64,000 bases of DNA, from assembly GCA_973895155.1 (NCBI GenBank), contig OZ316895.1, positions 23,510,558 through 23,574,557 of the forward strand. Reading direction: 5' to 3'. This DNA comes from Marsupella aquatica. Taxonomy: Eukaryota; Plantae; Marchantiophyta. The position numbers were made by a program, and so were the translations under genes. The notes under the pieces were generated by a model. The model was not told the DNA's origin. It searched no databases and saw nothing but the letters and a program-made list of their open reading frames with translations. Positions within the stretch are counted from its first letter, which is position 1. Each line of letters begins with the position of its first letter. Below, piece by piece: positions 3,278-56,601 of this stretch.

Positions 3278-4790
3278 CGGGTACCTTAGTAAGGAAGCGC
3301 AACAATAAATAAATAAATTATTATTAACATGTAAGGAAGCGCAACAATAAATAAATAAACTATTATTCAACATTTTGTACCTGTTGACATGTTGACAGAA
3401 TCTGTCAAGACAACATACTGGAGTGCTTGTGAAAATTGGGTACCTTAGTAAGGAAGCGCAACAATAAATAAATAAACTACTATTAACATGCAAGGAAGTG
3501 AAACAATAAATAAATAAAATATTATTAACTTGTGAGGAAGCGCAACAATAAATAAAAAATAAGCTACAACAAAACTACAAAGAAAGAGTCCCAAACAGGG
3601 GTTTAGCACAAGAATCACGTACAAGTGGATCGAAAGGTGAGCATGCCCCAATTCGGGTATCTTAGAAAGGAAGCGCAACAATAAATAATAAATAAACTAT
3701 TAATAACATGTAAGGAAGTCGCAACAATTAATAAATAAACTAATAGTCAACATTTTGTACCTGCTGACATGTTGACAGAATCTCTCAAGACATTCTGGAG
3801 TGCTTTGTGAAAACTGGGTACCTTAGTAAGGAAGCGCAACAATAAAGAAATAAACTATTATTAACATTTTGTGCATGTTGACAGAATCTTTCAAGATAAT
3901 CTGGAGTGCTTGTGAAAGGAATGTTGCTCGGTGTAAATTCTGGGTGTCGTAATGTGAACACTGACTTTTTAGTGTGTGCATTGTGAAATATTTTGGAGTG
4001 CTTGTGAAACCTGAAAAGAGATTTTAATGTTTGACTTATCTTCATGTCAGCACTTTTTCAGTGTGTCATGAAGTATTTTGGAGTGCTCGTGAAACTTGAA
4101 AAGAGTTTTGCTATATAAATTATAAGAATACGAGCCCTATGCCCGTGTGTTGCATGGCGCAAGGAGGGCCAACCCATAGGGAGTCAGGCCGGGGCATTTA
4201 TGGGGCAGCATGAAGCACATATGTGCTTGGGGTGCACATTTTCTCCATTAATGGTCAGGGAAAACAACCAATTGAATCCAATGGCTGCAGATCTTTCTCG
4301 CCCAGTTGAATTGTTTTGTATTGGGACAAAGGAAAAAAAAAACACCAAGATCTCTTATTATAGTTGTAGATTAATAATTTGATGTCTCTTAATGTAAACA
4401 CTGGCTTTTCAGTGCAGCATGTTTTGGAGTGTTTTTGAAAACAATGCTACAGCGTAAATCCTATGTATCTTGAAGTGAACTCTGACTTTTCAGTGTATGC
4501 ATTGTAAAATATCTTGGAGTGCATGTGAAACCTGAAAAGAATTTTACTGTGTAGATTATATGAATGTTTGAATTATCTTCATGTCACAATTTTCAGTGTA
4601 TAAATTCTAAAATATTACGGACTGCTTGTGAAACCTGAAAAGAATCTTGCTATCTAAAATTAAAGAATTTATAAACTACCTTAATATAAACACTGGGTTT
4701 TCACTGTATTCATTTTGGAGTGCTTGTGAAACGTCAAAAGAATTTTGCAATGTAAATTTCCAGAATATTTGAAGTATCTTAACAGTATAC
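3278..4790. repeat. Degenerate AT-rich minisatellite/TE-derived repeat array upstream of GAPA
   Basis: About 8 copies of AAGGAAGCGCAACAATAAATAAATAAACTATTATTAACATG-like units (3278-3870) and about 10 copies of GGAGTGCTTGTGAAA-like motifs (3420-4735). Confidence 0.75.
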
Positions 4791-6901
4791 ATTGTTTTAA
4801 AATCAAAAAAGTATGATCAGGAGAATAATCCTGGAATAATAATTAATTAATGTTTTGGGCATCGTTTTGTGAGCATGGATGGGACTAGGGTATACCCTTC
4901 CAGCTAACTCATTTATTAGGGGATCTCAGATATTGGGCTGTCATAGGTGTTACCAGGAGGTTGATACTGTTGCCCGTGAGGGGGATGCAGGCAAGTTTAA
5001 TGGAAGACATGGGGTCCTCACTTCTTTTCTTCCAACTGATCATGCGTGAAAATGGCTATCTAAGGTATGATCAGACACAATCACTCAAGGAAGCTGCTAC
5101 TTTGGTCTTTGCAAATACACAAATGAATTATGAATATGTGACAAAGGTAGCTAAGACTTTTGTGGATGACAAGATTGTCGCATATTCAGTCAATTTAAAT
5201 CCATTGAAGACCCTTGTGGATAACATGAGTGACAAACCTTCTCAAGGCTCTAGATAATGTCCAAGCCAGTGCAGGAGCTATTTTAATTTTGTTTGTAGGA
5301 TTTGTTTACTGATTTTGCATTCACCACTTGTCTGCTTGAGCATACTCAAACAATTTGGTGTTTGGTGCCAAACATTGACCACATTTATGCTCGGGGGCCT
5401 CACTCCAAGGGAGGTCCCATATCACGGGCGAAGTTTTCAAGGTAATAAACACCCTAAAATCTAAGAAAATAAAGTAGATTTTTACTATTTCTAAACCCCT
5501 AACTTTATAGAATGTTATAGAAATATTGCCATATTTGGTATTTAAAACCCTATTGTTCTTATAATCCTCAAGATTGGATTGAAACACCCCTATAATTCTT
5601 CAACAAAAAATTTAAAGTCTTCCGCACAATTGAATTAAAAAAACCCCTTACTTGTTCGCATGCGATGGATCGGACGAAAAGAACTGAGGGCCCCAGGCAT
5701 CCACGGAGAAAAAACAATAAGAATATGGAAACTGGAGGCCGGGGAATACAAATGTTGAGAGTTACTTTGGAGGGCCCTCGTTTTTAACAATTCCTTGAGC
5801 ATTTGTAATGTAACATCCTTGGTAACATCCCAGGCCACAATCAATATATGTTGTGTAGCCCTCAGGGCCCAAGGATGACAAGAATAAGGAGAACAAGTCA
5901 ATTAAATTAATTAGGCCTAAGAGAATATTCTTAGAATATTTTCCTCATAAAATAGGAGTATATTATATTAGGCTAGGATGACATGTGGTACCACTAAATA
6001 TACTAAATACACTAAATTAAGCCCCGGAGGCCTCCTCCATGGATCCTTATGGATCGGCACCCACCCCTACTAAAGGTTTGACAATGGAATGGGCCCTTGG
6101 TGCTCACAAGTAAGGTATACTTAGTTTGTTGGATGAGAACTAAACAACATTCTTTCTGAAGCTCTTCCTAGACAGTCTAAATGTTAATGTAGCCTTGTAA
6201 GAATGATCAGCTTGTCACTCTGGGCCCTGGCTACATGTAAACTATTAGAATCCTATTTGTGCACATTCATCGTCCCTTCGTTATGTCCCTTTCCTCATAA
6301 TATTTTCCTTTGTTACTAACAATAAATAAATGAGTTCAAGATATCTGTAAATTTCTCTAATGTGTGCATGATCTCTATGAAATCGAGTATGAAATACTTA
6401 AGCTAAGGGCCAAGGGTTCGTGCTGCCTGTGCCACAAATCGTGATCATACATCTTCACAATCTGCCAAGGTTTTTCTGCAGATTATGAAGGTGGGATGGA
6501 TCTCTTCACTTTGCATTATTTCTATCCACTTTCAATCTTCCAGGCCTTAAGTTTACCGTATCTCTGGAGGCCAAAGTTTCCTGATTAGCTATGGCAGCAT
6601 TTCTGGACACTGCTGATATCTTTGACTGCACTCAAAAAACTATGTGGGATACATACATGTCCCGCTCAGGCAGCCATTGCAATTATGCACAGTAATACAA
6701 CAGCCTATACTTGCTAAACCTTTTGAATTGGCATTCCTTCCACTTGTGTGAATGAATTCTGTTTCAAAACACTTAGCCCCATTCTGAGTGTTTATATTTT
6801 GTCTAATTAAAGTCATGAGCTAAACGCCTCACTCAGATAGTGGTAGTTTCTAAAGTCAGGTTATCTAATTTCTGGTGCTTAATTTATTATGGAGAAGAAT
6901 G

Positions 6902-7232
6902 TGTCACACCATTCTGAGTAGTGTAGTAGTATGAGTGCTATTAGAGTATGTACGTTTGGTATGAGTGCTATTGGAGCCGATAAGGTTCTGTCAGGTTTGT
7001 GTGAGAGGGTACTTCTCACTTGTGAGGCATTGAAAGGTCATCTTTCAATGTTGAGCCTTGGAGAGAGAGGAGCTTGAGTGTGGCTATGGTGGCTGTGAGC
7101 TCCGCTTGTGTAACGTGGATTCCTTGAGTAGTGCAAGGTGCGTTGGCTTGACATACGTGTGTGATCGGATCGGTGCGGGATCGATGGGGTATTGTTGACC
7201 GGGATCGTTGTGCCGATTGTATGGAGATTACA
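6902..7232 (+). repeat. Left terminal repeat, segment B1 (329 bp plus CA)
   Basis: 6902-7230 is identical by eye to 16709-17037. Confidence 0.95.
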
Positions 7233-7692
7233 TTGAAAGATCGCTCGAACTCTGCTGCTGTACGGATAGAGCTTCGATTGGAGGTTGTGTATTGGCGACG
7301 GTTTGTGGTAGTTCGAATCGATCGTGTTGTGTTGAAGAGGATTCGTGGTAGTTCAGATCTTATTGTTGACATTGTGTTGGAAGATCTATTCTGCCAGGGA
7401 GCTATTGTTTAAGCTTTCGACAGTTCCCGAAGGGCTCTGAGATGTGTTGATCGAAGGGCTGATCGACAGCAGAGGGATCTATGCCCGTGTTTGTAGATCT
7501 GTTGGACAGGGTCCGGACGGTGTAGTCGACCTTGCTGCGATCTGTCCCGAGTTGCGATCTGTGACAGTAGCGATCGGATTTGATAAGGCCGGCTGTGGCG
7601 CTGCTGTTTTGATGAAGGAAACGGAGATCAAACTTTGAATGCTGCGTTTTGCGTCACTACTGTTTCCATTCGATCATGTGTATGTTGCCGTC

Positions 7693-8964
7693 GCCAAGCT
7701 GCGATTTTGCGTGAAGGGACCCGCAGCCACGAAGTCGATGTTTTGTGAGGGAAATTGAGTCTGGATGTTGTGAGATCGAACTGTTGTGTTTCCGTCGGAC
7801 TGCTACTGCGATCTGTAATTCCGCGAAGGGAACCGAGAGGCAGAAGCTGGATGTTGCCGAATCTGATTGTGTGATCTATGAAGGGAAACCGAGGGCAGAA
7901 CCTGAATGTTGTCGAATCCGAAACTCGATCCGGCGTAGCGAAGCGTTGCGGGCGTGAAGGGCTCACTCTTTGGCTCATCTCGGCGTTTTGAGGCAACTCG
8001 TGGTTACTCGGGACGAGGGGCGTGAGGGTGGAGCAGGAGCGGGCCAGCAAGCCAGCTTGCTGGTACGTGAGGAGTAGTTGCAAGTGCTGCCATTTTGGAG
8101 TGGCAGATTTGGTGCATAATGACAAGTGAGAGGTCACCCATCCCAAAGCTATTCCTCCTCTCATGAGCTTAACTAGCAAGTTTCTATGTGGTGCATTGTA
8201 CATGCTTCCTTCCACATTTGATGTCCAAGGAATGAGGCCCTAGGGGTTTTATGCACTTTTGAATTCATCTAGATACTCTGTTTTAGCTAGTTTGCGATGG
8301 ATTCTTGAATATTTGACGCGGGATTCTTGAGGCCAAGCTGCGATTTTGCGTGAAGGGACCCGCAGCCACGAAGTCGATGTTTTGTGAGGGAAATTGAGTC
8401 TGGATGTTGTGAGATTGAACTGCTGTGTTTCCATCGGACTGCTACTGCGATCTGTAATTCCGTGAAGGGAACCGAGAGGCAGAAGCTGGATGTTGCTGAA
8501 TCTGATTGTGTGATCTGTGAAGGGAAACCGAACCTGAATGTTGCCGAATCCGAAACTCGATCCGGCGTAGCGAAGCGTTGCGGGCGTGAAGGGCTCACTC
8601 TTTGGCTCATCTCGGCGATTTGAGGCTTCGAGGCAACTCGTGGTTACTCGGGACGAGGGGCGTGAGGGCGGAGCGGGCCAGCAAGCTTGCTGGTACGTGA
8701 GGAGTAGTTGCAAGTGCTGCCATTTTGGAGTGGCAAATTTGGTGCATAATGACAAGTGAGAGGTCACCCATCCCAAAGCTATTCCTCCTCTCATGAGCTT
8801 AACTAGCAAGTTTCTATGTGGTGCATTGTACATGCTTCCTTCCACATTTGATGTCCAAGGAATGAGGCCCTAGGGGTTTTATGCACTTTTGAATTCATCT
8901 AGATACTCTGTTTTAGCTAGTTTGCGATGGATTCTTGAATATTTGACGCGGGATTCTTGAGGCC
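7693..8964 (+). repeat. ~635-bp tandem duplication in the retrotransposon 5' leader
   Basis: 7693-8331 and 8332-8964 are near-identical; the antisense ORFs 7628..8215 and 8249..8845 start with the same sequence. Confidence 0.92.
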
Positions 8965-9279
8965 TATTATGAAGGCCTTACATTGAACTATATGCACATT
9001 ATTTACATGTATTTCTGATTAATTGGTGTGGAGAGTTGTGGTAAATCCTCTTCTTGTTGTTGGATCCTCTCCACACATGCTTCATGTTTATGCGCCATGT
9101 TAGTTTGGCGTGGGCGCTTGATTCCATAGGAGTGATCCGGGTTTGCAACTGGACATTCTAGTGTGCCGTGTATTTCTCTCTTGGTGATGTTGGAGTGATG
9201 CCCAACACACCATGGTGAGTGCTTGTGGTGCTGACAGTGATAGATTGCCCTTAGGGTTAGCACATAGATTAGGTTAGGG

Positions 9280-12130
9280 TTGGTCACCACGGATTCTTCT
9301 GGTGCTGCTGGATTACCCGATGGACGACGGACCGGTTTCACTCGGAGTGGGGCACAGTTTCGGCCAGCGACATTGGTGGCAGTCAGCAGTGCAGCTTCAG
9401 ACAATGATTCTGATGAGGACTCAGTGACCAGTTCTCCTCATCATCAGGTGGTTGCACCTTTGTTGTGGGATATGGACGAGATGTACGGGGCTACAAAGGG
9501 CCCACGATGATACTCTGGTGCAGTTGGCACAATTGATCTGGATGACTTCATCCAGGAGTTTGATACGTGGTGCGATATGCAGACATTGCATAACGTCACG
9601 TTGTTTACCCCTTTCATGGCATGGAAGGGATTATTCCAGCATTTGGAGGGGCCACCCATGGATGACTACCATGAGTTTCGGAAGGCTCATTTGGTTGAGA
9701 TTGAGGCATGGAGGCAGCATTGGTCGCCTAATTACATGTCCATCACCTATGGCACTAGTGCAGCTGCCCAACCCATTGCCACAGCTGTTGCTTCTTCTAG
9801 CAGCACTAGCCAGAGTGGCACACCATCCACCACCAGCACTCTAGCAGCATCCACCACTACTCCTGCCGGTGTGATTGTGACAGGAACTGGAGTTGCGCCA
9901 ACATTTAATCCTGTGGTGGAATTCTTTGAGGTACTGAAGCAAAACTATCAGGGTGTGAGAACTGATAAGTTGAAGGGTCTTCAGGAGTTCCAACGCAAGA
10001 CTGGAGAGAGCCTACGTGAGGCATACACACATATGCGCAGATTGATCACTGTCACCAAGGGAGTGACAGAGGCTCAGGCAGTCCAGTTTTGGTATGCAAT
10101 TCTGGACAGAGAATTGCGACACAGAGTGAGAGATGTCAATCTGCTTAGGGATGCAGATCCCACATTAGCAGTTGTTTTCACCCTTTCTGAGCGCATTGAG
10201 CTCAATATGGTGAATGAGAAGGTGGTGACTTCCGATTTGCCAAGGAAGCACCAAAGGCTGCATCTACATCCACACCACAGCCTACTGCATGGAAGAGCCA
10301 GAGGGAGAAGCCTACTGCACGAGAGTCTACCAGCCAGAGACCTGTGCCCTCTTATGCTGGACAGCAGTCAGGATGTTGGACCTGTGGTGGGGATCATGCA
10401 CAGAGATATTGTCCAGATCATAGAGGATCAGGGGGAGCATCAGCGCTTGATCAGCGACAGTGTGATCACTGTGGAGCTCCTGGGCACACCAAGGATAGGT
10501 GTTTCTCACTCCACCCTGAGTTACGGAGAGGAGGATCCCGTACACATGATCAGGGAAGAGGAGGAGGAGGTAGAGGTGGTGGACGTGGTCGTGGCATGCC
10601 ACATGCAGGGAGACAGGGAGGTGACACTGCCCCTGCTGTAACCATAGATCCAAAGGATGCTAAGATTGCTCAATTGGAGCAACAACTAGCTGCCATGGCT
10701 AGTTCCCAGGTGAGACCTAATTCTGGTGATGGGGCATCTACATCCTATGGACCTTCCACATCCCATGGTCCTTCCACATCTTATGGAGCTGATAGAGACC
10801 TTGCCACCATGGGATTCATGTGTGGCACTGCACATATTGATGCATCAGCAGCTTTGACACGTGGGGCAGCCAAAGCTCTTGAGCCCCGAGGAGCAATAGT
10901 GGAGTTAGATCCACAAAGGGGGGATGCACGTTGGCAGACAAAGCTTCCTCAGTCTTTTACATTGTCAGAGACAGTTCAGACTGCCTCTATGAACCCGGTT
11001 CGGACAAACCCTGATGTGGGTAAGTTGGCAGAATCAGGTAGTGATGCAGCAGGGATGACAGGTACCTTGCTGGGGGCGGCTACTGCCATAGTACGCACCC
11101 CATTATTTTCAGCGATAGACATGCTGAACTTGGGAGTTGGTCCTGCAGAAGTGTTCAGATTGGTAGCTACACTCTGTGAGGACACTCCAGTGGTTGCTTC
11201 CCATGCAGAAGCAACTTGCAGTGTTGATGCAGTGAAGACCATGCCACCTACTGCTACTAGTGAGACATGGCATGCAGTAGCAGCGAGGTTGGTGGATTTA
11301 CCAGCACGCCCTGCATTTGAGAGGACTAGGTTTAAACCTAGTGTTGTGTCATTGGATAATCGGAGTGGTATCTTCCGATTAGTTGGGCCTTCTGGAGCAG
11401 TATACCAGCCAGAGAGAGTGTTATTGGATACTGGTGCTCAGCCCTTGATGGTGGGGAAGTCTGCCATACGTGGATTGGGATTGCGTCCAGAGGATTTGGA
11501 AGATTGTCCCTTTCCCATTCAGACTTCATTGGGGGGACCTACACCTACACAGCATATCACCAGGAGACCACTTGATTTGAGGATTCAGGAAGGTCATACC
11601 ACAGATAGCTCACAGATACAGGCGCGAGCTATTCTGACTAAGGCAGAGTCATATGATGTGTTGGTGGGATGTACAGTGCTCTACCCCATGGGATTTATTC
11701 TTGATTTTTGGGAGGAATCAGTGTCATATAGACCTGATTGGCAGTCAGGAGATGCTCGATTGAGCAAATTGCCAGTGAGATTTAGTGGACCTGTGGGAGG
11801 CCCTAAATCCACACCATTGTCTTTGGCAGCATTCAGTGGTGTAATTGTTGGACCTGATGATTTGATTGAGGGTAATGCGCATGCAGCCGATGTTCCACCA
11901 TTGGAGGAGTCTCATGAGGAGCACATCATGCGAGGATTACCTATTGGTAGTGTTGTGCCACCAGTGTGGGGCACTGCACAGGCCTTGCCACAGGCAATAG
12001 CACGATTGGTACATGATGCATGGTGTCATGCTTTTACACCACAGTCAGGAGCAGAGCAGTCTCTTGCAGATGGACCTGTGACTCTTTCACCATTGGATAC
12101 CACTCCTATTGCTTGGCAGTATCCACCGGA
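9280..12130 (+). pseudogene. Retrotransposon gag (two CCHC zinc knuckles) and aspartic protease
   Basis: Gag-like FQRKTGESLREAY; knuckles CWTCGGDHAQRYC and CDHCGAPGHTKDRC; protease LLDTGAQ (~11421) and YDVLVG. Stop at 9508-9510 and a frameshift near 10235. Confidence 0.88.
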
Positions 12131-13075
12131 GGGTATTTGTTTGTTGGATCTTTTTGGTGGGATTAGCACTGGATTGGCTGCTGTTCTTTAGGCAGGAATT
12201 CCTGTGCGTCGTTATTTGTATGTGGAGACAGATGAGACAACGCGGAGGGTCTCATTGCGACATGTGGCTATGTTGGTGGATAGATATCCATAGTTGCTGC
12301 CAGTGGATGCTGTTCGTGGTTATCAGCATGCACTACCTGCTGATATTTCATTGTTGGGGGCGGATCATCTACATCGTGTTGGCCCCATTGATTTGGTGAT
12401 TGTTGGTTGGTCATGTCAGGGCCAATCTGGAGCTGGCATTGGGCATGGACTTCATGATCCACGCTCTGCATTGTTTTGGGAGATGTTACGGGTGCTGCGT
12501 CATCTCCAGCTACATCAGACACAGTCTCTTGCATACATTTTGGAGAATGTGCCATTGTTAGGTGATGATCGTAGTCGGATTGTTGCCAGTGTTCACCAGG
12601 TGAGGTCTTGGATTGGACCTGCTGTGTTATTGGATGCTGCACGTGTCGGTTCTCGTGCACATCGTCCACGCTTGTGGTGGACTAATTTGATCCCATGTGA
12701 GGTGCTGAAGCACGCATTTGACAGCATTCCACGCTCACCAGCCTTAGTGGTGAATGATATTTTGGATCCAGGGTGTCGTGCACAGGGTGTGACCCAACCT
12801 GATAGACCTCCATTGGCAATGGTCAATGTAGTTGGGTGCCCACGTTGTGCATTACCCACTCTTGTAAGCCACTCTGCTTCATATGCATTCAGAGCAGGTG
12901 GCCCTGGACTTGTATGGGACATAGCTCTCCAGTAGTTAGTGGAGCCTACTGCTGATGAGAGAGAGCGTGCTATGGGATTTTTGACTCGCACCACTGCAGT
13001 TGCCTCTGTGTCAGAGGGTTTACGGCGCCAGGTTCTTGGTCAAGCAATGGATTTGAATTGTTTGACTTGGATTAT
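12131..13075 (+). pseudogene. DNMT3-like C5 cytosine DNA methyltransferase domain within pol
   Basis: One frame when the TAG stops at 12189, 12291 and 12933 are read through. Motif I LLDLFGGI; motif II YVETDE; motif IV DLVIVGWSCQG; GLHDPRSALFWE; motif VI ILENV; motif VIII RAHRPRLWWTNL; motif IX ERAMGF; motif X RRQVLGQAM. Confidence 0.88.
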
Positions 13076-13329
13076 CAGCTTGGGAGTAGCTGAACAGTTG
13101 TGGATGCGCTCTGCCGGAATTACTGATTGTCCCTTGGTGAGCTTGCGGTCCACTTAGACAGTATTGACCACAGCTGGGGGCGAGCAGACAGTCCATGGAC
13201 CTATGGCAGGATTGGCCAAGGCTGGACAGATTGTTGAGCAGGAAGGGACTGCTCAATCTACTGCTAAATAGCAATCATCGGCTATCTCTTCTACCCTACA
13301 AAGAGATATTAGGGATTTGGTGGAGAGTT

Positions 13330-16300
13330 GGGAACCACAGCTTGGCCCTAAGTTAACAGGGGAGGAGAGACGTTGCATGCATTGATTCCTGAAGAGTTAT
13401 TGGAATTGTTTTGCATTCAGCATGAAGGATTTGGGGACATTGAAGGGCCCTGGTATTCAGATTGAATTGGCTAGTGATGCGCCAATCTTTCATAGACCAT
13501 ACCGTTATAGTGACATGGAGAGAGCTCTGATTCAAAGCAAAACTCAAGATTTGTTGGAGGTTGGATTGGTGGAGATTTCATATGGGGAGTATGCATCTGC
13601 CACAGTGATGCCAGCCAAGAAGGATGTGCATGGCAATTACATAGATAGGCGCATGTGTGGTGATTACAGACCTATTAATCGCCAGACAAAATCTGATCGA
13701 TATGCCATGCCCACACCTGAGGAGATCTTTGATGCTGTGGGGCATGCAAAGGTTTTCAGTTCATTGGATCTGAGGGCAGGATACCATCAGCTTCCAATTA
13801 GGCATGCTGACAGGTCCAAGACAGCATTCTGGGGGATTGATTCTTATGGCAAAGATCGTTTGTATCAATGGTTATTCTTACCATTTGGGTTGAAGAATGC
13901 ACCAGCTGAGTTCCAGAGAGTCATGGATTGAATCCTTGCAGGTTTGGATTTTGTCAGATTATATTGATGATATTTTGGTCTATTCTTCTACTGTGGAAGA
14001 ACATCAGCAGCACTTGCAGATTGTGTTGGAGAGATTGAGAGCACATGGGTTGAAGCTCCATCCTGGCAAGTGTAAGTTCTTCCAAGACCAGATTGAGTAT
14101 TTGGGCCACACTATATACCCAGGGGGATTGGGTGTACAACAGACTAAAGTGGAGGCCATTACACAAATTCCTCATCCTACTGATGTGAGCAGAGTTCGTG
14201 CATTCTTGGGATTGGCGAGCTACTATAGGAGGTATGTTAAAGGATTTAGCCAGCTTGCTAAACCTTTAACCATACTCACTAAGTTGGATCAGGAATGGAC
14301 TTGGGGTGATGACCAAGAGCATGCCTTTCAGGAGTTGAAGCAAAGGTTGGCATCATCCCCTATTTTGAGAAGACCCATTTCAGGCAGACCATTTCAACTA
14401 CACACTGATTGGAGTGGAGTAGGACTTGGAGCAGTGCTGACTCAGAAAGATGATGAGGGGAATGAGTTTGTTGTGGCTTATGCCAGTAGATCAAACAATG
14501 CAGTAGAGGCTAAGTATAGCTCTTATGAGGGAGAGTATTTGGCAGCAGTGTGGGCTGTTGCACACTTTCGTTGCTACTTGTTTGGTAACCCCTTTACCTT
14601 GATCACTGATCATCAGCCTCTTAAGTGGTTAATGGAGTCTGACAAGCTTGCAGGGAAGCTTGCACGATGGGCATTGTTGTTACAGGAGTATGATTTCCAG
14701 GTGGTGCATAGGCCTGGAAAAGTGAACTTGGATGCAGATGGATTAAGCCGCAATCCATGTACCAGTCAGCAAGATGAGACTGGAGCTAGATGGCATGATA
14801 AGTCAGATAAGGAGATGGTGCTAGGATGGCATGCATCTGTCTTTCTTTGTTGGGTGCCAGCATACAGTGGATCTGTGGACTCTACCTCATTGGATGGAGT
14901 GGATGATGAGTCTTCAGATGTGGATGTTGGTGAGGTAACTTCTGGACAACAAGATATTCACAATGATGTGAGAGTGTTGAAATATCTGCGCAGTGGTTCT
15001 ATTGTTGGCAGTGTTGATGTCAAGGAACGTGACAGGGTTCTACAGAGAGCCAAGAGGTTTCGATGGGAGAGAAACCATCTTTTGAGAGTACTGCATGATG
15101 GTAGGATGTTGGTGGTACCAAAACCATCACAACGAGTACATTTGGTGCGACATGCGCACGAGGAGTTGGGTCACTTTGGTGTGAAGCGCACTTACAGCTT
15201 GCTGCAGACACAGTATTGGTGGCGTGGTATGCACACTCATGTCCAGCAGTTGATAGCTAAGTGTGTGGTATGTGACAGAGTGAGAGCATCATTTAATGCT
15301 CCCACTCCCCAGTTGCACCCGTTACCGATCATGGGTTTGGGATATCGTTGGAGTTTGGATTTTGTTGGTCCATTACCTCTTACCCAACGTCATAATCGAT
15401 ATGTTTTGGTCATGGTGGAGCACTTCTCCAAGTGGATTGAGCTAGTGGCGTAGCCAGATAAAGCCAGTGGAGGAGTTGCTGCTACATTTTTGGATTGTGT
15501 ACTCAGTCATTTTGGAGCACCAACTGAGGTGTTGACTGATCAGGGAACTGAGTTCCGTGGAGAGTTTGAGAGTTTGTGTGAACAAGCTTTGATTGATCAT
15601 CGCACTACCTCTCGTGATCATCCTGAGGCAGATGGATTAGCTGAGAGAGTTGTGCAAACTGTGAAGAGAGGATTGCGTAAGTATGGCTTGCAGGTTGGTC
15701 ATCTGGGAGATTGGGATCTCCAGCTACCTTGGTTAGCTATGGGCTATCGTTTCAGTCGGCAAGCATCACTTGCATCCTTCTCACCCTACTTTTTGCTCTA
15801 TGGTAGAGAGCCAGATTTCCCAACAGCTATTCGTCGTCATGCTGCACCAGTTGTGAACTTGGATGATCCTGATGTTTGGGTCAAGGTGTGTTCAGAGAGA
15901 GCACGGGTATTTCAGAGAGTGATGCCCATGGCTTTTGACAACCTTGCCATTGCCCAACATCGTGATACTTTGAGGTATGCCACTATTCATGGAGGAGGTT
16001 ACCGTGCAAGCATTCGACGATTTCATCCTGGTGATTATGTTTATTTGCAGCAGACAGCACCCACGACACTTGATGTGACCGCAGACCGGACAATCTTACG
16101 TGTGCGTGAAGTGTTGCCTTCTAGTGTCCTGATGTTGGAGGGACGCGATGGTATGGTTTGGAAGGATCATGTGCGCAACTGTGCACCATGTCACCTTCCC
16201 AACATTGATGGTACAGTAGATCCAAGCTTGGCACATGTTCGTGCTGGCTTGAAATGTATGTTGTGTGGATCTGCTCAGGGAGTAGCTACTATGTTGATTT

Positions 16301-16395
16301 GTGATAAGTGTTCTAGAGGATGGCACATGTCATGTTTGACACCACCATTGCAGGTGATTCCTAGTGGATCATGGTTGTGTCCTCAGTATCGGTGA
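13330..16395 (+). pseudogene. Retrotransposon reverse transcriptase, RNase H, integrase and C-terminal PHD finger
   Basis: RT: RMCGDYRPIN, SSLDLRAGYHQ, LPFGLKNAP, YIDD. RH: LHTDWS, TDHQPL, DADGLSR. INT: HEELGH..CVVC, SLDFVG, TDQGTEF, DGLAER. PHD at 16255-16389. Stops at 13929 and 15451 and a frameshift near 13955. Confidence 0.95.
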
Positions 16396-16570
16396 AGCCG
16401 ACTAGTTATCATTTGTGTTCTCTTGGCAGATATGGATTGCAGGTAGGTGATCGATGGGGCTCACTTGCACCCGGCCTCCTGATCTTCACACCTAAAAAGG
16501 TGTATATCAACCTTGTAGAACTCATGGCTAGCTAGAGTTAGGGGACCTTACTCCCAGCTAGGGGGGCGAT

Positions 16571-17174
16571 TGTGGGTTTTGGACATGTGTGGACATGAGT
16601 TCCACTTGTATTCCATTCTCTTGTATTTGTGATGTGGCAGTGTGACTATGTCTGGATGTATGTGACAAGCGATGTATGTTGTGTAGCGATATGTATGCGC
16701 ACGACAGCTGTCACACCATTCTGAGTAGTGTAGTAGTATGAGTGCTATTAGAGTATGTACGTTTGGTATGAGTGCTATTGGAGCCGATAAGGTTCTGTCA
16801 GGTTTGTGTGAGAGGGTACTTCTCACTTGTGAGGCATTGAAAGGTCATCTTTCAATGTTGAGCCTTGGAGAGAGAGGAGCTTGAGTGTGGCTATGGTGGC
16901 TGTGAGCTCCGCTTGTGTAACGTGGATTCCTTGAGTAGTGCAAGGTGCGTTGGCTTGACATACGTGTGTGATCGGATCGGTGCGGGATCGATGGGGTATT
17001 GTTGACCGGGATCGTTGTGCCGATTGTATGGAGATTATTGTGGGTTTTGGACATGTGTGGACATGAGTTCCACTTGTATTCCATTCTCTTGTATTTGTGA
17101 TGTGGCAGTGTGACTATGTCTGGATGTATGTGACAAGCGATGTATGTTGTGTAGCGATATGTATGCGCACGACA
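16571..17174 (+). repeat. Right terminal region A1 (16571-16706) - GC - B2 (16709-17037) - A2 (17039-17174)
   Basis: A1 and A2 are identical 136-bp copies and B2 matches B1. The A1/B2 junction is the palindrome GACAGCTGTC. Confidence 0.93.
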
Positions 17175-18359
17175 AATGCATAGTCCACATTTGGATTGAG
17201 GCAATATGAAATTTTGCCTCTACTTTTACTAAAACTATTAAAATAAAAAATCTCTTCCGCCTTTAAGCATGTTCACACCATGTTATTGAAGGTGTTCTGG
17301 GCGTGTTCTGGGCAATAATAGCCCCTCAAAACTTGACCTAAGACCCTCCTTTTTAGGGGCATTATGGTCCACAATGTCCACTTACTAGGGCATTACTTTG
17401 TAAATCATATTGAGATTGGAGTGTACTTCCTTGCCAGAGTTTTCTAGCCTTGGAGCTTTCTAGCCTTGGAGCTTGGAGGTGTCGCACTAAGGAGGGTCCC
17501 ATATCACATGCAACATTTTGGGGTAATAAATACCGCCAAAAAAAATCATTACCAAAATAAATTTTACTCCTTTCTTTTGGAATATTTCAAATTCATGTTT
17601 TGAGACCCAATAAAATTCTTGCTAAAATATATATTACTCCTTTCTTTTGGAATTTTTCAAATTAGTGTTTTGAAAACCCCATTTTTCCTGATAATGCAAA
17701 AGTGTATTAAGAAACACCTGATACTATTTGTATGCTAGAAACTATGATTGAAGGACTTAATTTGTGATTCTCTATTGATTGAATGATCATGTCTTGCATT
17801 TTTTCTAAATTTTTTTCCATGCCTCGAATGGTGTTTCCACAGACATAAATAATGTTTGATTTTATATGCCCTTGCAAATACATCTTACTGGCTGGAAAAA
17901 TTCATAAGTTACACACATTAATTGAGTATTCATCACACACTATTTGTGGATCACCAAAAATAATCTTCCTTATTTTAATTTAGAATAACATATATTTACT
18001 CTCACTTTTTATATAGTCTCACACACATTAATTATGGTGATATCCTTCAAAATCCTTTGTTCATAAATACTGTGTGTGATACTAATTACGGTAATCAGTG
18101 TAGTTTCCGATGTGTCATGTTTTGCTGTGACACCTAGCTGCATGCACTTCCCTCTTCAAAAGCAAAGATAACGGGGCAAAATGTGAGAGCAAACAATGGC
18201 CTAGACTGGAGGGCCAAGAGCAATTCTTCGCTTGCAACTGTGAAATATCCGTCGCCATTGTTTTCTGCGAGAATGTTGATAGATTCTTCATCAAACTGAG
18301 AATTGTGTTCGAATTGAAATCTCACTGAGTTTCCCACAAAGTGAGATTGATGATTTGAT

Positions 18360-27234: not shown

Positions 27235-29283
27235 ACTGACTGTTGGAGTTCAACGAGCAGGCAAGAAACTTAATTCAAATTCCCAAAAACTATCGCAGCA
27301 TTGTCATCCCTTGCACATGGGTTCTACGAAAGAGCTTAGAATTTGCCAAAAGCATGACCACTCCGACCACTGCTAAAAATTCCTTTACATAACACGACAC
27401 TTAGCCAGTCCATGAAGTAGCTAGCTGGTGTGGTCTCCCAGCCCACCACCTTAGCTATCTAGTTGTCAATGGACGAATCTAGGAAGTACTTCCTGTTGGA
27501 CGGAGCTGTCAAGATGCTATGCAGGCACTCTGAGGGGGAACTTAGTGACCTCGTGACACCTCTCGCGTTTAGTCCTTCGTGGCAAGTGGGTTCTTCTCCG
27601 CTGTGCTCTCTCCTAGTCCTCTCGGTAGCTCGATTCCGGTTCGAGCTCTCCTTCTAATCCTCTAATGAACTTCTGTGCTGCTGTTCCGAGTACAGTCTCT
27701 GGAAAGGCCCTACAGAACTGTAGTTCTGAATATGATGAAGATCTTGCTGCTCAACCGTCTGGGATGGAATCCAGGCAACCATACGTCTGGGATGAAGTTC
27801 GGCAGCAGCAACGAGCTTGAGTCAGTGTGAGCGAGCCAGCTAGACGGGCAGACCCCTTTCCAGAAATCCCGGAACCTGGACGCTGCAGTTAGGGAGAGAT
27901 AGATAGAGGATAGATTGAGAGGGTGGATAAGTCATTGCTGCATTGTTGTTCTCTATCCACAGCTTCCTCCTTCACCTCATCCATCATCAAACCACCGGCA
28001 GCTTGCCTCCTGACAAGTTACACCCTCCTAATCCTCACAATCTGTCACTCATCCACCGCACCTCACCCCCTCTTTCGCTGTTCCCTTTCCCTCCTCGCCT
28101 TTCTCCTCTTCCTCCTCCTCCCCCGCTTCCTTATCGTTAGCTTTGCTTCATCCCCTTCTCCGCCTTCATTCCTCCCCACAATTCCCATCCACAATTCTAA
28201 CCCAATCCACTTCATTATTATTACTAATCACGCAGCCTGGAATTACGAAGCCACGCTACTTTTTCGTCTTCCTCAGTTCTCCTCTCTCCCCTCTTCGCTC
28301 CCCTCTCTGTCACCTTGCTTACCTCGTTTCCTCTTCGTTAGCTCCAAGTAACAGAGGAGGGAGCTCACACAGAGAACAAACGACACAGGGAGAGTTCGGA
28401 TAGGAGGGTGGTATCTGTGGAGCCAATGGGAGCAAGTCTAGATGAGCTGACGGGGCAGATATGGAGGTAGAGGCACCCGAATTCATAAGGCTCACAGTCG
28501 TCCACATTGCCCCTCCTACTACTCTCCTTTGTCATACTCATCACCACTTTCGCATTCTCCACCTCTTCCCCAATCCAATCATTACAGTCAGCCCCGTCTG
28601 CATATCCCCTGGTAGGAAGGCAACAGACACGCTTGCACTGTTGCACAGGTCAGAAGCAAGTAATGATAAAAGTAAAGTAAGCAGGCAGGCAGCCTACCCA
28701 GGTCCCAGGCCAAGCTGATGATAATAGACGGGCACACACACCACAAGCTTCCAAACGGGCAGCATGCCAACAAATCAGAATTGCCTCGTTGGGGTTTGTC
28801 TGTTGAGAGCCAGCCAGTGAGTGAGCCAGCCTCATTTTGCCATGGAACTGTAGCACACAGCCCATGCAAATTCGGCTAGCTACAGTCCACTAGACCACAG
28901 TCCACCAGAGGCCCACAGCGCTGGAGCTAGTGAGCTATAATAAAAGGGCCTATCTGGCTACTACTGCAATCACTAGAGTGGCTGAGATTTGTAGCTAAGG
29001 TGGGGCACTTTACCATCACTTTTTATGGAGTCATTCCATCTTTACTTATTTGACAGAAAGCTAAATAAGGTGGGGTGTCTTTTACCTTTGCTTTCCAATT
29101 TACTCCTCTTTTCTCTCTTTTTACCTAACTTTATATAGTTTCCATATGAGAGGTACTAGAAAAGTAGTTGTGGATTCATCGCAAAGGTTCTTTGGAGATT
29201 TTTTAAGATTGGCAGTTACTATATTAGCTTTAGTGTCCTGTCTTTGAGTATAAATAGAGGTGAGTAGATTCAAGTTGGTTACT

Positions 29284-29582
29284 TCATTTTTCAGAGACTC
29301 ACCCTGCCCCCATTCCCTATTTTCTGCTTGCACCCCCACCTTCAGTTGCGCCCCCTGAGTCCCCCAGAGTTAGGGTCTAGTGTCATTTTTCAGAGACTCA
29401 CCCTACCCCCATTCCCTATTTTCTGCTCACACCCCCAACTTCAGTCGCGCCCCCAGAGTCCCCCCAGAGTCAGGGTCTAGTGTCATTTTCCAGAGACTCA
29501 CCCTGCCCCCATTCCCTATTTTCTGCTTGCACCCCTAACTTCAGTTGTGCCCCCAGAGTCCCCCTAGAGTCAGGGTCTAGTG
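29284..29582. repeat. Tandem repeat, 3 x ~100 bp
   Basis: Unit TCATTTTTCAGAGACTCACCCTGCCCCCATTCCCTATTTTCTGC...AGGGTCTAGTG. Confidence 0.9.
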
Positions 29583-39551: not shown

Positions 39552-39707
39552 AATTTGGGTTTCATGCTAACAAATATAAAAGGGTAATAAAGCCCCATGT
39601 ATAAACCAACCTAATTGTTTTTTGAGTTCATTTTTTTAAAAATCGCTTTATATATGGCCTAATTTTTCCTAATCATGCCCTACATGCAATGTAATGTGGC
39701 AGTGGAT

Positions 39708-40874
39708 ATGTCCTCTTCCTCTGAACTATCCAGTAGTGAGTACTCCTCCGATGACGATATACCCCCTCCTCCTCAGCCCGAGGTTACTGGTCCTCGTGGT
39801 CCACCCCGAAGACTTTGTGACTGCACCAGATGTGTGGGCCAAATTTCTCAAAAATCTTATGTGTGTGCTCAACATATTGAGAGATATGGACGTCATAGAG
39901 GTCTTACTCCTAGGGCTTCTTCATCCCATATGGTAAGTTTGTTTCAATTGATTGCGGTTCTTTACTGTTATTTTTAGAGGTGAATCAATGTTTACACATA
40001 TGGTTTACACATTTGGTTGTTTGTGGGTGTTTGCATGGAATAGGGATCCAGTATGCGTAGATTGGTGACACCACCACCCTATGTCCCATCACAAGGAGTT
40101 TTAGATGCTATAGGCAATGCACTTTCACAAGCCTTGGGTTTGGGAATTAGTACCAGTCATGGGACAGAAGGGGAACACCCTCATGTGCCCACTGAGACAC
40201 GAAGACCCCGGTCCAGGCCCCAATCCAACAGGAGGCCACGAGCACCCAATGACCCATCCAGAACACTAGTTCAGGGTAGGTGGGGTGTTTGTTCATTCAC
40301 TGGCAAGTGTGCCTCTATCATCAAGGATTGGGAACCTATCACTCTTGGCTTGCCTTATTTTACAGATTTTGATGAGGAGATTGTGGTTTGGGGTAGACGT
40401 TGGATTGTGAAAACTTCCACACTTGGAGAGAGACATGGATATGGAGTATTTGCTTGTGAGGATATCATCATGGATGAGGAGGGTGGGTCAAGTGTTCGTG
40501 GTAGAGAGGGTCCTACTTTGTTCCCATACGGTGGACCCATCTACAAGAGAAGACATTGGAACATGATCCTTGCACAACATCCTGAGTGGAAAACATATGC
40601 TCTAGAGATGGATACTTTTGATGGTAGCACTAGAAGGTATAGTGAGCAGCGGGTGATAGATGGTGATCCCATACGTAATGGGAATATTGCTGGTTTCATA
40701 AATAGTACTGTGGGGACTCGGCCCAAGCGTAGGGCCAATTGTGAGTGGGTTTTTACTGATGGTCCAATGCCGGCACCATATGGCACGACATATCATAAGG
40801 ACCATTGCTTAGTTCTTGCTACTAGGACCATTAGAGCAGGAGATGAGTTATTCACACACTATGAGTGGGATTAG
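39708..40874 (+). CDS. SET-domain lysine methyltransferase-like protein in the CACTA element (exons 39708-39932 and 40044-40874)
   Basis: SET motifs HGYGVFACEDI, PYGG, YAL, IDGD..GNIAGFINS, NCEW, LATRTIRAGDELFTHY. Open frame with no stops and a phase-0 GT-AG intron. Confidence 0.82.
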
Positions 40875-43800
40875 GAAATCATGTCCTTTATCCTCTTGCA
40901 CCTATTTTGGACTTCCCATTTACTATTATATATATGGCCTTTGGGCTCATTTTGGAGTAATAAGGTTTTAGCCCATGCATTTACTTTAATTCTTAATGTC
41001 TTGAATGAATGGTGTTAAGTCTATTTTAATTTGTTGTACTTGGTCAAATATACATGAGGAGGTTTTTTGGTTGTAATGTGCATAGAATGCGCAACCATCT
41101 CAACAAATGTTACCACGAAGGTTGAGAGCAACATATTGGGAGATGGGTATGCCAGAAGAGGGAGAACCATCAGAGGGTGATTCCTCATCAAGTAATGATG
41201 TAGGTGGTGCTGATGAGGAAGCCGCACCTCGGACTGATGACCAGGTCATGCATGATCAAGATAGAGCCATGGATGACTTCATGGTTGATTGGTTTGGTGC
41301 CGATGTTGAGGATGATGTGCCTCACATTGGTCATGAGGTTGGCCCTTCAAATGACCCACGGCCACAACATACTCCAGAGGGACAACAACAATGGAAAGAG
41401 GCAGAGGAACATGCTCGAACACCTATTTTTGAGGGTGCTCGGTTGAGCCGTCTTTCTGCCATATTGGGGCTCTTGAACATTCAAGCCAAACACAAGACAA
41501 GCAATTCTATGTTATCAGACATATTTGAATATTGTCATGACTTGATGTTACCCTCGGAGAATGTGTTGCCAGGGACCTGGAAGGATGCAAAGAAGGTTCT
41601 CTCATCCATTGGTATGGATTACCATATTATTCATGCCTGTGTGAATGATTGCATGTTATTTCACGGGGATACAGCCCATATCACAGAATGCACAGTGTGT
41701 CATGAGCCACGGTATGAGCCAAACATGCTAACCCAGAAGGTACCAAGGAAAGCAGTTTGTTGGTTCCCCATAATTCCTCGCTTGTTGCACATGTATAGAT
41801 GTTCTTACTTGGCCGAGTTGATGGTATGGCACAAGAAACATCGTTCGGAGCCCGGTGTCATGCGATTACCAGTTGACTCTCCTGCTCATAAACATGTGGA
41901 ATCAACATGGCCAGATTTTGAGCGTGACCCTCGGCATGTGCGACTGGGGTTGGCATCAGATGGAGTTAGCCCTCATTCACTTGGAGGGAAGGGGAGACCT
42001 ACATCGGTCTGGCCTGTGGTTCTCATGAATTACAACCTTCCACCATGGTTGTCCATGAAAAAGGGTTTTTTGTTGCTATCTTTGATTATCCCAGGGCCAA
42101 AGAAGGTGAAGAACATGGACACCTATTTGACATTACTGGTTCAGGAACTCCAGAAATTATGGGAAGGAGTATGGGCATATGATGGTCGAAAGACTACAGG
42201 GGGTACCCCACGGGTTTTCAAACTCAAAGGGGTTTGTATGTGGACCATGCATGACTACCCAGGTAAGAACTTTGTTGTTTAAATGCATCATATTCTAATG
42301 CATGGTATCCCCTCATTTCCATGTGCTAATCCTAACATAATGTGTGTTTATATGACCAGGATTTGGCTTTGTGAGTGGGTTGCAAACCCAAGGCTACAAG
42401 GCTTGCTCCACTTGTGGCCCAAGCCTTGGTGATGTAGCCAAGTATTCATCACATCTTCGCAAGATTGTTTATCTTGGGCATACAAAGTTTCTTCCAATGG
42501 GACATCAGATGAGGCGTGACCCACTACTATTTTCCTCTATTGATATGCCCTTTGGTGACGAGCGTGATGTACCTGAGCCAACAACTTTTACACACTGGAA
42601 AGACATGGCTGCAAGAGTGGCAGACCCAGAGGATCCCATGCAATTTGATGGTAGTGGCTTGACAAGGTGGAGTATATTAACCACTTTGCCCTATTGGGGT
42701 GAGTTGAAGATCCGCCATCTATTAGACCCCATGCACATTGAGGGAAATGTGGGAAAGGCTTTGATAAAGGCTTTCTATGGAGAGAAAGACACTAACTTCA
42801 GGGAGGCTTGTGAGGATCTTGAGATGCATCCAGACGTGTGGGTCATAAGTGATCCTATCACAGGGATCGAGCATCGACCTTCAGCTCCATGGGTGCTTCC
42901 TATTGGCCAGAGAAGGGAGTTTCAGAATCGCATAGGAGACATGCGGTTTCCTACTGGTTATGGTGCCAATCTCCGAAAGGCCTTTGGGATGGAGGACAAT
43001 CATAAGTGGCCAAGGTATCTCAAGACACATGACTACCATAGGTTATTGCAGCACATATTGCCTGTGGCCATAATAGGTTTGGCAAGTGAAGAAGTGCAAG
43101 ATGCCCTTTGGTCATTGGGAAAACTATTGAGATGGGTATGCTCTAAGGAGATATATACTGATGAGATCCCTGGGATGGAGGTTTTGGTAGCAGAGGTGGT
43201 ATGCAAGTTGGAGAAGGCCCTTCCTCCTTCCTTTTTTGACTGTCAAGTGCATTTACTTGTTCATCTTGTTCATGAGGTGGCCATTGCAGGTCCTGTGCAT
43301 TGTCGGTGGATGTATTGGCTAGAACGATACATGGCAGTGTTAAAAGGTTATGTACGTAACCGTGCACGGGTTGAGGGAAGCATGGCTACAGGATACTTAG
43401 CAGCTGAGAGTATGTTCTATTGTAGTAACATATTGGCCACAATTGATTGTACCTCTCCCCGTACTTGGGTAGAGGAGAGGGAAGATGAAGAGGATCGTTT
43501 AACAGGTGCTAGGAAAACTCGCATGTTGACATCAGTGGAGGTGAAACAACTGACCACATTCATGTTGAGTAACAGCACTATCATGGAAGAATGGAGGGAT
43601 TTCTATGAGGATGCCAAAAGTAACAGCACAAGACCAAGGATTTTTCCAAAGTACCTTGACTATATGAAGGAGAAGTTAGTTGAGGTGGATGACATGGTGG
43701 TCAGGGGAGAGAGTGTATTACATTTTCCGGCTATCACAGATGATGTTCGTACCATTGTTCATGGTCCCTTGAGAGTGGTTACAACAAGGACAGCAATGTG

Positions 43801-44479
43801 GACACAAGGAAGACATTTCAGGTGATCTCCATCTACCTTAGTAACCTTTGATTTGAATCACTTGGTTTAATTTAATTCATTTGTAATACAAGCACGTATA
43901 TTGAAGAGGCAGATTCTTGGTGTGTTCAATTAATTGGAATATGTTTGTGTCTATTTTTGTGTAACATATCCTTATGGTTTGATGGATTTTAGGATTTCTT
44001 CCCTTGATGAGAAGAGGGGTCGTACCTTTGATTGTGGAGTTCAAGGACAATTCTCTCAAGATTCCCGCAGCAGTCGGCATGACACAAATATTATTCGAGA
44101 TGTTGTGCCACATTATGGAAAGGTAGAAGAGATTCTAGTGATATCTTATGATGCACAATCAAAGTTTGAAGAGTATGTCTTCAAGTGCAAATGGTTCAAA
44201 GTGAACCTTGCAGGTAACAATCCTACTGTGGTTCAAGATGAGTGTGGATTTACACGACTGAAGACTTCTGCCACTAGTTTCCAGCCATCTCATTGGCAAA
44301 CATCAGAGCCGTTCACTTTTCCAAGTCATGTGGAACAATGTTTCTATATTCCATACCCCCCAAACCCAGAGGAATGGTCACTTGTCATCACATATGTGCC
44401 ACGGTCTCGTTCAATCGTTGGGGAAAAGCCTGATATTCTGGTTGTGTCCCAACCTGAAGATGATGAGGACCAAGTTTGA
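39708..44479 (+). CDS. CACTA TnpD-like transposase (predicted exons 39708-39932, 41086-42262, 42360-43821, 43993-44479; 1116 aa)
   Basis: N-terminal CDCTRC..CAQH..YG transposase-associated motif; IHACVNDCMLF; LASDGVSP; YNLPPW; HDYPG; MHIEGNV; LKTHDYH; HLLVHL..GPVHCRWMY..ERYM; HYGKVEEI..FKCKWF. Exons sum to 3351 nt with no stops. Confidence 0.92.
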
Positions 44480-55563: not shown

Positions 55564-56601
55564 CTAATCATCATCCGAACCATCATCAAGTCCTTCCAAA
55601 ACATCAAAAACTTTAGTCTTGAGCATGTGGAAGTGTTCCCTGAAGAGCGTCTCGGCTTCCTGTTGAAGTTTAGTTGCTGCAAGCGTCCGAGCGAGTCTGA
55701 GCATGTGTGGCACATTATCTACTGTTAATTGTCGGCAAAGCTCAGAAAAATTCCTTCAGAAATCCAATTTCCAGACAATGTGCAGCTCTGAGGACCTCAT
55801 CAGGGCGAACAAATTCCGAGAAAGTTAATTCTCCAGAATGACAAAAATTCGATAGTTCTTCGTAGACTGGGTCTGTGCCAGAAAACAGCTCCTTGACCGG
55901 TTTCAGTCCAGTTCGACCATTCGCTATCGCCTCTTGGACGAATCGTGATTTTGCAGCCTGTACATCATGTTGAAACAATATTGTTAACCAACGAACAAAG
56001 ACACTCATATATCCTAAAGTCACATTTAAGATTTGATTTTCATGAAATGACGCCAGAAGTAAACAAATATTTCGAGGTCCAACTACACCGTCATTTTTGA
56101 GGAACAGGAAACAGACGTTGGCGTGATGTCAGCCAATGGGATTAGAAGCAAGGAGTACAAATTCCTCACCACGACAGACAAAATTACAGCTGCAGGTGTA
56201 GGCACCGTAGAGCCATTGAGCTTTCGCATTGTCCACGCAGGCAGAAACTCGCGGGGCAGTTTCAAAAACTGCACCATAATTCCCTGGCTAAGGTTTTCGG
56301 CCTTCAGCCTCTCAACCTCCGATAGTAATTGCTCGTACTCTGTGCTCTTGTTCGTCAATGCAAGGGAGCTCTCGGCAGTTATCCTGGACAGTTCAGTTTG
56401 ATGATTTTCTTTGGACGCGGCAAATGCAGCCCGCACCAACCTCAATTCAGCCTGAAGTTCCGTAACTTGTTTCTCATGGCGCGATTGACAACTGGAGCAG
56501 CCAGAGATATCCAGACGATATTGACAGCCACTTACCCAAGTACGAACCACTGCCGGTAAATCGGCCTCCAAACAGTATTTACAATACTTCTGTGTTGACA
56601 T
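55564..56601 (-). pseudogene. Cys-motif/coiled-coil/BTB-POZ gene, copy 1 (frameshifted)
   Basis: Exons 56170-56601 and 55564-55957. A 5-nt deletion relative to copy 2 near 55745 (FLKEF) shifts the frame. Confidence 0.75.

Follow-up and report, generated by a model that had tools for sequence, protein, structure and literature searches.

A liverwort Gypsy retrotransposon family with a DNMT3-like methyltransferase, possibly made at capsid level to methylate its own cDNA

The window analysed here, a 64-kb stretch of the Marsupella aquatica genome, contains a Ty3/Gypsy retrotransposon that carries a DNMT3-like C5 cytosine methyltransferase (DNMT) domain between its protease (PR) and reverse transcriptase (RT). 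The identity and anatomy of this element are held with high confidence. For its biology, we lean towards an account in which a high-copy liverwort family supplies DNMT at the level of its capsid protein by means of a leaky stop codon, and the enzyme would methylate the element's own cDNA before integration; the window copy itself is defective.

The element and its methyltransferase domain

The element occupies positions 6902–17174 on the plus strand, between two copies of a 4-bp target-site duplication, AATG (6898–6901 and 17175–17178). It has the traits of Ty3/Gypsy elements: the order Gag–PR–RT–RNase H–integrase, a DDE integrase, a polypurine tract and the target duplication. All features described below lie on the plus strand. 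A long 5′ leader (7242–9471), with a tandem duplication of about 640 bp (7693–8334 and 8332–8964, 94.6% alike), precedes Gag (9472–11360), which has zinc knuckles CWTC at 10374 and CDHC at 10461. Gag is followed by the aspartic protease (11370–11750; LLDTGA at 11421) and by DNMT (12129–13085), the last domain of ORF1. RT and RNase H (13278–14760) come next, in frame with ORF1, and then a DDE integrase with an H2C2 zinc finger (15100–15800). In relatives, Gag is continuous with PR, and the protease matches PF13650/PF13975. The preliminary description of this DNA had proposed a Gypsy element carrying a methyltransferase, and the presence of Gag, PR, RT, RNase H, DDE integrase and a polypurine tract bears this out.

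The integrase ends in a PHD finger (16249–16395; PF00628, E = 4.6e-10) that is without the tryptophan of the H3K4me3 cage. Among its relatives, this tryptophan is replaced by glycine in 56 of 61 and is missing in 60 of 61. The solved proteins that best match the finger are CHD4, DPF3, ATXR5, KDM5, PHF21A, UHRF1 and AIRE; PHD fingers of this class read unmethylated H3K4.

Besides natural stops at 13269 and 16393, the window copy has eight stray stops and two frameshifts. Gag is interrupted by a stop (9508) and a frameshift (near 10233), RT–RNase H by two stops (13383, 13929) and the other frameshift (near 13958), and the integrase by a stop (15451). The copy is dead and cannot make the enzyme. 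Where read tables list them, sibling copies differ from the window at the breaks 10233, 12291, 13155, 13383 and 13958. Because its repeats are identical and yet its ORFs carry ten breaks, the window copy was probably mobilized recently in trans by an intact sibling.

For translation of the DNMT domain, each of its three TAG stops (at 12189, 12291 and 12933) was read as X. Its motifs run in linear order, in the protease frame and within the PR–RT interval, as had been proposed: motif I (LFGG) at 12150–12161, II (VE) at 12222, IV (GWSC) at 12405–12416, VI (ENV) at 12543–12551, VIII (RPRLWW) at 12663–12680, IX (ERERAMGF) at 12957–12980 and X (GQAMDLN) at 13038–13058. The PF00145 match on which the earlier assignment hung was recovered with this repaired translation, above the Pfam cut-off (E = 1.3e-7; 31.8 bits versus a cut-off of 22). 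As a single sequence, the domain is nearest among solved proteins to DNMT3A (1e-10), followed by DNMT3C and DNMT3B, with DRM (6e-4) and M.HaeIII (2e-3) at lower ranks; a family profile again placed DNMT3A first (6e-19), ahead of DRM (1e-8) and bacterial enzymes (4e-5). The profile alignment to DNMT3A covers motifs I–VIII and IX–X, and the target-recognition region does not align. This region is also poorly modelled by AlphaFold2 (pLDDT 73 and pTM 0.80 for the domain, residues 213–267 being unreliable), and the top structural match of the model is DNMT3A (E = 7e-14; TM 0.59/0.70). With DNMT3A first by sequence, family profile and fold, the earlier claim of a DNMT3-like rather than a DRM enzyme stands. 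By these similarity ranks DNMT3 appears to be its nearest relative, with DRM, DNMT2 and bacterial enzymes further off; the trees described below hold element-borne domains only. In the ESM Atlas, a streptophyte PF00145 cluster and phage clusters gave equal scores, and a search of viral contigs returned only weak matches to phage methyltransferases (7 loci at 28–40% identity).

The catalytic machinery is conserved across the family. Motif IV was located by pattern in 93 of 173 relatives and reads PC in 87 of these 93 and SC in one, so the change from PC to SC noted previously in this motif is genuine and confined to the window copy. EN[VI] is kept in 121 of 135 (173 family proteins examined), and the catalytic PC, EN[VI] and SAM-binding motif I are retained in families that are about 35–70% alike. 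No targeting domain is attached to DNMT; DUF3444, PWWP and ADD are missing, and the domain has no introns.

The genomic surroundings agree with a land-plant host. A nuclear, spliced GAPA gene with a transit peptide lies at 766–2818 on the minus strand, and its last exon (766–1270) shares 99% identity with Calypogeia and 97–98% with Marchantia and Riccia; no other named taxon in the 120 matches listed exceeds 95%. The host is a liverwort, and its standing as a land plant, assumed earlier, is thereby borne out. AT-rich repeats of about 40–160 bp lie upstream of GAPA (3279–3904), and a 100-bp unit is repeated in tandem three times at 29262–29560. The window also contains a CACTA (En/Spm) transposase remnant (39663–44479). 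An ORF just upstream of it (40044–40874) matches the SET domain (PF00856, E = 5.7e-6, above cut-off); a DNA transposon lies beside or carries a histone-methyltransferase-like domain. An exon of a signal peptide peptidase (PF04258) is found at 49660–50154 on the minus strand. Three diverged tandem copies, about 3.1–3.9 kb apart, fill 55585–63826; within them, an ORF on the minus strand (62449–63072) matches BTB/POZ.

A widespread family and a conserved stop

Searches returned 170 relatives of near-equal length and 53 longer ones, with named plant relatives in Marchantia, Calypogeia, Riccia, Sphagnum and Closterium, and a profile search with a limit of E ≤ 1e-30 gave 493 clusters (50% identity). 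Of 104 confirmed metagenome loci, 80 were examined; the family met most often among them shares 92% identity with a Sphagnum protein. In sequencing run X1, 24,830 contigs align to the element region, and some stretches of flank are covered by single exact contigs. The element family is large; summed contig depth is no copy number. One family member, P0021, is named as a DNA cytosine methyltransferase in a cyanobacterial-relative metagenome-assembled genome, on a 2.4-kb contig, and is likely to be plant DNA binned with a bacterium.

The domain is under purifying selection. For an unsaturated pair of loci, L036 and L037, dN/dS is 0.12 in DNMT, 0.14 in PR and 0.08 in RT. Between families where dS is computable and not saturated, DNMT has a dN/dS of 0.13–0.21, and within a decaying Sphagnum-like family the value is 0.35. 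A domain confined to this copy and free of purifying selection had been named as the case that would undo the earlier proposal; what is found is a widespread family with a dN/dS of 0.12–0.21.

Many relatives have a different arrangement. In 83 of 144 newly listed clusters (for example, P0429, P0158 and P0400), DNMT lies between RNase H and integrase (RT–RNase H–DNMT–integrase–PHD), and the sole named member of this group is a Scenedesmus pol. In the DNMT tree, this second and more diverse architecture makes up one side (SH-aLRT 99); DNMT therefore either moved once or was captured twice. We found no mention of it in the literature searched. Distances in the DNMT and RT–RNase H trees are modestly correlated (Spearman 0.56 over 64 rows, and 0.37 within the second architecture); the RT–RNase H tree is without a sound outgroup, and the distance correlation alone was used. 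Eighteen proteins are omitted from the DNMT trees, as are domains of fewer than 270 or more than 420 residues and DNMT-only proteins. The eighteen include five Marchantia and Sphagnum gene models in which DNMT and RT are joined (P0125, P0129, P0132, P0135 and P0154); these have internal gaps, which suggests spliced predictions over broken copies.

In the window element, ORF1 (Gag–PR–DNMT) is closed by an in-frame stop, TAG CAA TCA, at 13269–13277, with adenines at −1 and −2. The TMV-type readthrough motif is given as UAG-CAR-YYA (PMC3159437, as far as its text is accessible), and the liverwort sequence matches it exactly. The description of the methyltransferase as lying inside pol is therefore right as to the protease frame and the position between PR and RT; it does not hold for a shared reading unit with RT, from which the conserved stop separates DNMT.

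Of the 56 loci that hold both domains, 53 have CAR directly behind the first stop met upstream of RT, and two of the three exceptions have a second stop codon right there. These 56 loci are not independent, since they come mostly from one Sphagnum-like family, include some shared insertions and represent about five families. The stop sits 12–22 codons from the RT match in families that are only 50–70% alike. The clearest case is L036, in which an ORF1 of 1,369 amino acids, TAG CAG TTA and an ORF2 of 1,047 amino acids form one frame with no other stop. Sibling copies agree with this picture: in four of four runs no variant is listed at 13252–13281, and siblings depart from the window's flanking stray stops in nearly all of the X1 depth (110,752 of 110,894 at 13155 and 134,659 of 135,399 at 13383). 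Taken together, these sequence comparisons make it likely that the stop at 13269 is read through by a minority of ribosomes to give RT, RNase H and integrase–PHD.

The stop might instead be a true end, with RT, RNase H and integrase translated from an RNA of their own, spliced or internal, or through re-initiation at an ATG two codons on. In 44 of the 56 loci the stop is followed by CAA CCC and then ATG, and in 20 of 56 it is TAA, which would suit such an arrangement. Just 7 of the 56 have CARYYA in its strict form, which counts against readthrough. RNA structure 3′ of the stop is weak (z of −0.6 to −2.0 in six of seven sequences, and −4.1 in L036 versus −0.8 in its sister L037), in a set in which the window sequence is offset by one base and the covariation term is only −0.49. 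However, this ATG is missing from the window family and from L004/L075 and L036/L037, all of which yet keep stop–CAR in frame with RT. Moreover, an RT that is not fused to Gag would be without the usual route into the particle. We therefore regard a true end as improbable and retain readthrough as the preferred reading; DNMT would remain at Gag level under either.

Because the conserved stop lies behind DNMT, the enzyme would be made at the level of Gag. Gag–PR–DNMT proteins without RT, from Marchantia and others, end 72–146 residues past DNMT. In the DNMT tree, 27 rows ending after DNMT group with the window (SH-aLRT 86), and this group nests inside relatives that run on into RT, such as P0215, which has DNMT and RT in one ORF of 2,811 amino acids, and Closterium models. 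The stop-terminated form thus looks derived. Judging from their ORFs, many relatives keep DNMT in the RT unit, and a Gag-level supply would not be needed by the whole clade.

Permuted repeats and the route to integration

The window element is without two equal terminal long terminal repeats (LTRs) and instead has a permuted layout, A–ORFs–B–A–B. Repeat A1 (6902–7229; 328 bp) starts with TGTCA at the 5′ end of the element, a boundary common to relatives, and is identical to A2 (16709–17036). Repeat B1 (16569–16706; 138 bp) ends in CACGACA and is identical to B2 (17037–17174), which forms the 3′ end. A polypurine tract, AGCTAGGGGGGCG (16556–16568), is common to distant relatives and abuts B1. 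A1 is predicted to hold the distal U3, R and U5.

The putative primer-binding site (7230–7241) is not tRNA-like and has no TGG; there is also no tRNA gene in the 64-kb window. Its 12 bases, directly after A1, are the exact complement of 7040–7051 within A, a candidate self-primer and RNA 5′ end, and none of 9,240 other 12-mers of the element matches A in this way. Such a pairing recurs in relatives, at 17 of 17 bases in L052, whose sequence differs, at 16 of 17 in L003 and at 14 of 17 in L060; it is degraded in L016, where none is convincing. RNA would thus start near 7040 and its first 12 bases would prime reverse transcription, in the style of Tf1.

From primer and polypurine tract one would expect a linear cDNA with the beginning of B at one end and the last base of A at the other. 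In two families, joining these two predicted ends bluntly gives exactly the A2|B2 join. At the B1|A2 joint, the two termini of the element, TGTCA and CGACA, recur head to head around two spacer bases, forming an internal palindrome, GACA-GC-TGTC (16703–16712), that is a predicted integrase site; in relatives the spacer is GC, AT, AC or GT. In seven complete elements, the 4-bp duplication is exact in five and has one mismatch in two, and a 5-bp duplication is found in none. A complete B–A–B end is present in five loci plus the window. A shorter A–ORFs–B form without the trailing A–B, in which B meets the flank, occurs in ten records (nine distinct; for example, L029, L034 and L079), and its 4-bp duplication is exact in L034 and L079.

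We slightly favour a route in which the integrase cuts the internal palindrome on a circle, so that circular DNA integrates. The linear cDNA, (B–A)...(B–A), would be circularized and GACA-NN-TGTC cut with the loss of two bases; a two-LTR circle would give A–ORFs–B–A–B and a one-LTR circle A–ORFs–B. The A–ORFs–B copies could equally be recombinants or assembly collapses. The mirror form, A–B–A–ORFs–B, is found in none of 18 records with a full 5′ repeat (16 distinct flanks), which counts against a simple symmetric two-LTR circle, although collapse of short reads could hide it. At 17032, the sequence immediately ahead of repeat B varies in seven contigs from run X2, which may come from diverged subfamilies or from copies with B as their first part.

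The same absence of the mirror form would fit a DIRS/Ngaro-like replication, or strand transfers by RT, as the source of A–ORFs–B–A–B, with A–ORFs–B arising later by B–B recombination or collapse. The layout is indeed that of DIRS elements as the accessible text of PMC5890265 describes them. We nevertheless consider this origin doubtful. The six element ORFs scanned contain no tyrosine recombinase, there being a DDE integrase and 4-bp duplications instead; the A2|B2 join exactly fits the ends set by self-primer and polypurine tract in two families; and short reads would tend to collapse A–B–A (a 338-bp repeat) more than B–A–B (113 bp). Circle integration through the palindrome accordingly remains our preferred route, and DDE integrase using a circle as its normal route would, if true, be unusual among LTR elements.

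Possible roles of the enzyme and comparison with known systems

On the preferred account, most ribosomes would halt at 13269 and a minority would continue, the protease would free DNMT within the particle, and DNMT would place 5mC on the cDNA or circle, which could then pass as ordinary host chromatin or keep new copies quiet. The PHD finger would guide integrase to chromatin in which H3K4 is unmethylated. Among possible substrates, the cDNA of the element itself is favoured because an enzyme fused to Gag–PR would be packaged and because SymbioDIRS enzymes methylate CG; we give its methylation about an even chance. CpG depletion was considered as a footprint of self-methylation and set aside as unspecific: observed/expected CpG at codon junctions is 0.13 in the element versus 0.16 in the DNMT-less CACTA of the same window, which is equally depleted, and ranges from 0.10 to 0.73 in relatives. 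A CHG difference in raw counts vanished after codon shuffling.

Two other roles have to be weighed. Animal DNMT3 reads unmethylated H3K4 through its ADD domain. DNMT might act in the nucleus on chromosomes, at the insertion site or in trans on family copies, damping transposition and sparing the host. A Gag-level supply exceeds the need of one cDNA, the integrase PHD is of the unmethylated-H3K4 type, the same cue as that of the animal ADD, and a host-benefit model is raised in the accessible text of PMC5890265. We think this unlikely, since DNMT and PHD are on different predicted cleavage products, DNMT is without an attached targeting domain, and the methylome of Klebsormidium nitens is described in the same text as ordinary despite such elements. 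Less probable still is a non-catalytic job, such as binding or shielding the cDNA or acting as a decoy for the host methylation machinery. Gag-level amounts would suit a structural protein, there is no specific CpG footprint, and the Klebsormidium relative was inactive in yeast; yet human DNMT3B was likewise inactive in the same yeast test (PMC5890265, accessible text), and the family-wide retention of PC (87/93), EN[VI] (121/135) and SAM-binding motif I argues against it. Methylation of the element's own cDNA thus stays our preferred function.

More broadly, and tentatively, these elements could belong to an old, undescribed green-plant Gypsy lineage of chlorophytes, Zygnematophyceae, liverworts and peat mosses that has DNMT3 and PHD domains, is self-primed and integrates as a circle through an internal att site. 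Its land-plant branch might have moved DNMT before a leaky stop, so that particles are loaded and 5mC is written before the host sees the copy.

The kind of element is already known: KnitGypsy-Dnmt3 has the same repeat layout, and the cases published in the accessible literature come from algae only. New here are the host, a liverwort, and the ORF1 models without interruption in Marchantia; the conserved stop of the readthrough type, by which DNMT is grouped with Gag; and the large second architecture. The literature searched, outside of which lie most subscription journals, Repbase and figure supplements, contains no land-plant DNMT retrotransposon and no such readthrough or repeat mechanism. 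The survey in PMC5890265 lists Physcomitrella and Selaginella, with no Marchantia match in its searchable supplements, and the accessible text of PMC12344493 speaks of 'streptophytes', and its supplementary trees may include land-plant copies. What DNMTs do for retrotransposons was left unanswered in the accessible text of the 2018 paper, whose algae are difficult experimental subjects. In Marchantia polymorpha, uninterrupted Gag–PR–DNMT ORFs are annotated as hypothetical genes (for example, Mp4g09160) and methylation mutants exist, so the role of the element's DNMT becomes testable. If readthrough is true, the element invests as heavily in the enzyme as in its capsid, and fewer models then fit. 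Because the repeats are permuted, a family abundant in bryophytes would be overlooked or misinterpreted by ordinary LTR finders, and counts of bryophyte 'DNMT genes' are inflated by transposons.

The closest known system is KnitGypsy-Dnmt3 of Klebsormidium nitens, a Gypsy element with a Dnmt3-type domain (de Mendoza et al. 2018, PMC5890265; this and the SymbioDIRS comparison follow the accessible text). Going by its description, the two have in common Gypsy domains joined by a Dnmt3-type domain that is linear and free of introns, A–ORFs–B–A–B repeats and purifying selection near or below 0.2. Unlike KnitGypsy-Dnmt3, the liverwort element has a land-plant host and a very high copy number, and its DNMT is split off by a stop, whereas the authors place that of KnitGypsy in one ORF with RT and RNase H. 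The text makes no mention of a self-primer, internal termini, a 4-bp duplication or a PHD finger. KnitGypsy-Dnmt3 did not methylate DNA in yeast, a result its authors call inconclusive. No named Klebsormidium sequence was among the relatives returned by our family searches, in which Closterium relatives were present. SymbioDIRS-Dnmt3 of Symbiodinium, which methylates CG de novo in yeast and is reported as an independent capture, likewise has a Dnmt3-type domain in a retrotransposon with split repeats; it differs in having a tyrosine recombinase rather than a DDE integrase and in carrying DNMT in the RT ORF (PMC5890265). The tyrosine recombinase that defines DIRS/Ngaro elements is likewise replaced in the window element by a DDE integrase, with 4-bp duplications.

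Two further groups were considered. Troyka, by its accessible description, has CG..CG termini and a 3-bp duplication and is confined to animals, versus the 4-bp duplication here, and its standing as a split-repeat element is not borne out there (PMC12440569); identity with it was rejected. The accessible descriptions of Phygy and Selgy name no PHD, methyltransferase or Marchantia.

The remaining parallels concern priming, the stop and the enzyme, again from the accessible parts of the sources. In the self-primed Gypsy elements Tf1/Sushi and plant Tcn1, the primer site is complementary to the RNA 5′ end, as predicted here (PMC6317226, PMC4600332); these differ in having ordinary paired LTRs and no methyltransferase, and the chromoviruses among them have a chromodomain, whereas the liverwort integrase has a PHD finger. 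Tj1 of S. japonicus also needs a stop codon between two ORFs (PMC6317226, PMC4600332), but its stop follows Gag, and that of the liverwort element follows Gag–PR–DNMT. Unlike in TMV, the predicted readthrough signal parts a methyltransferase from RT in a retrotransposon. Finally, host DNMT3 of non-flowering plants (PpDNMT3a/b, PMC6453930) and animal DNMT3A/B share with the element the same linear catalytic domain and fold; the element's DNMT differs from host DNMT3 in having no DUF3444, PWWP, ADD or introns, in lying within a polyprotein and in its unalignable target-recognition region.
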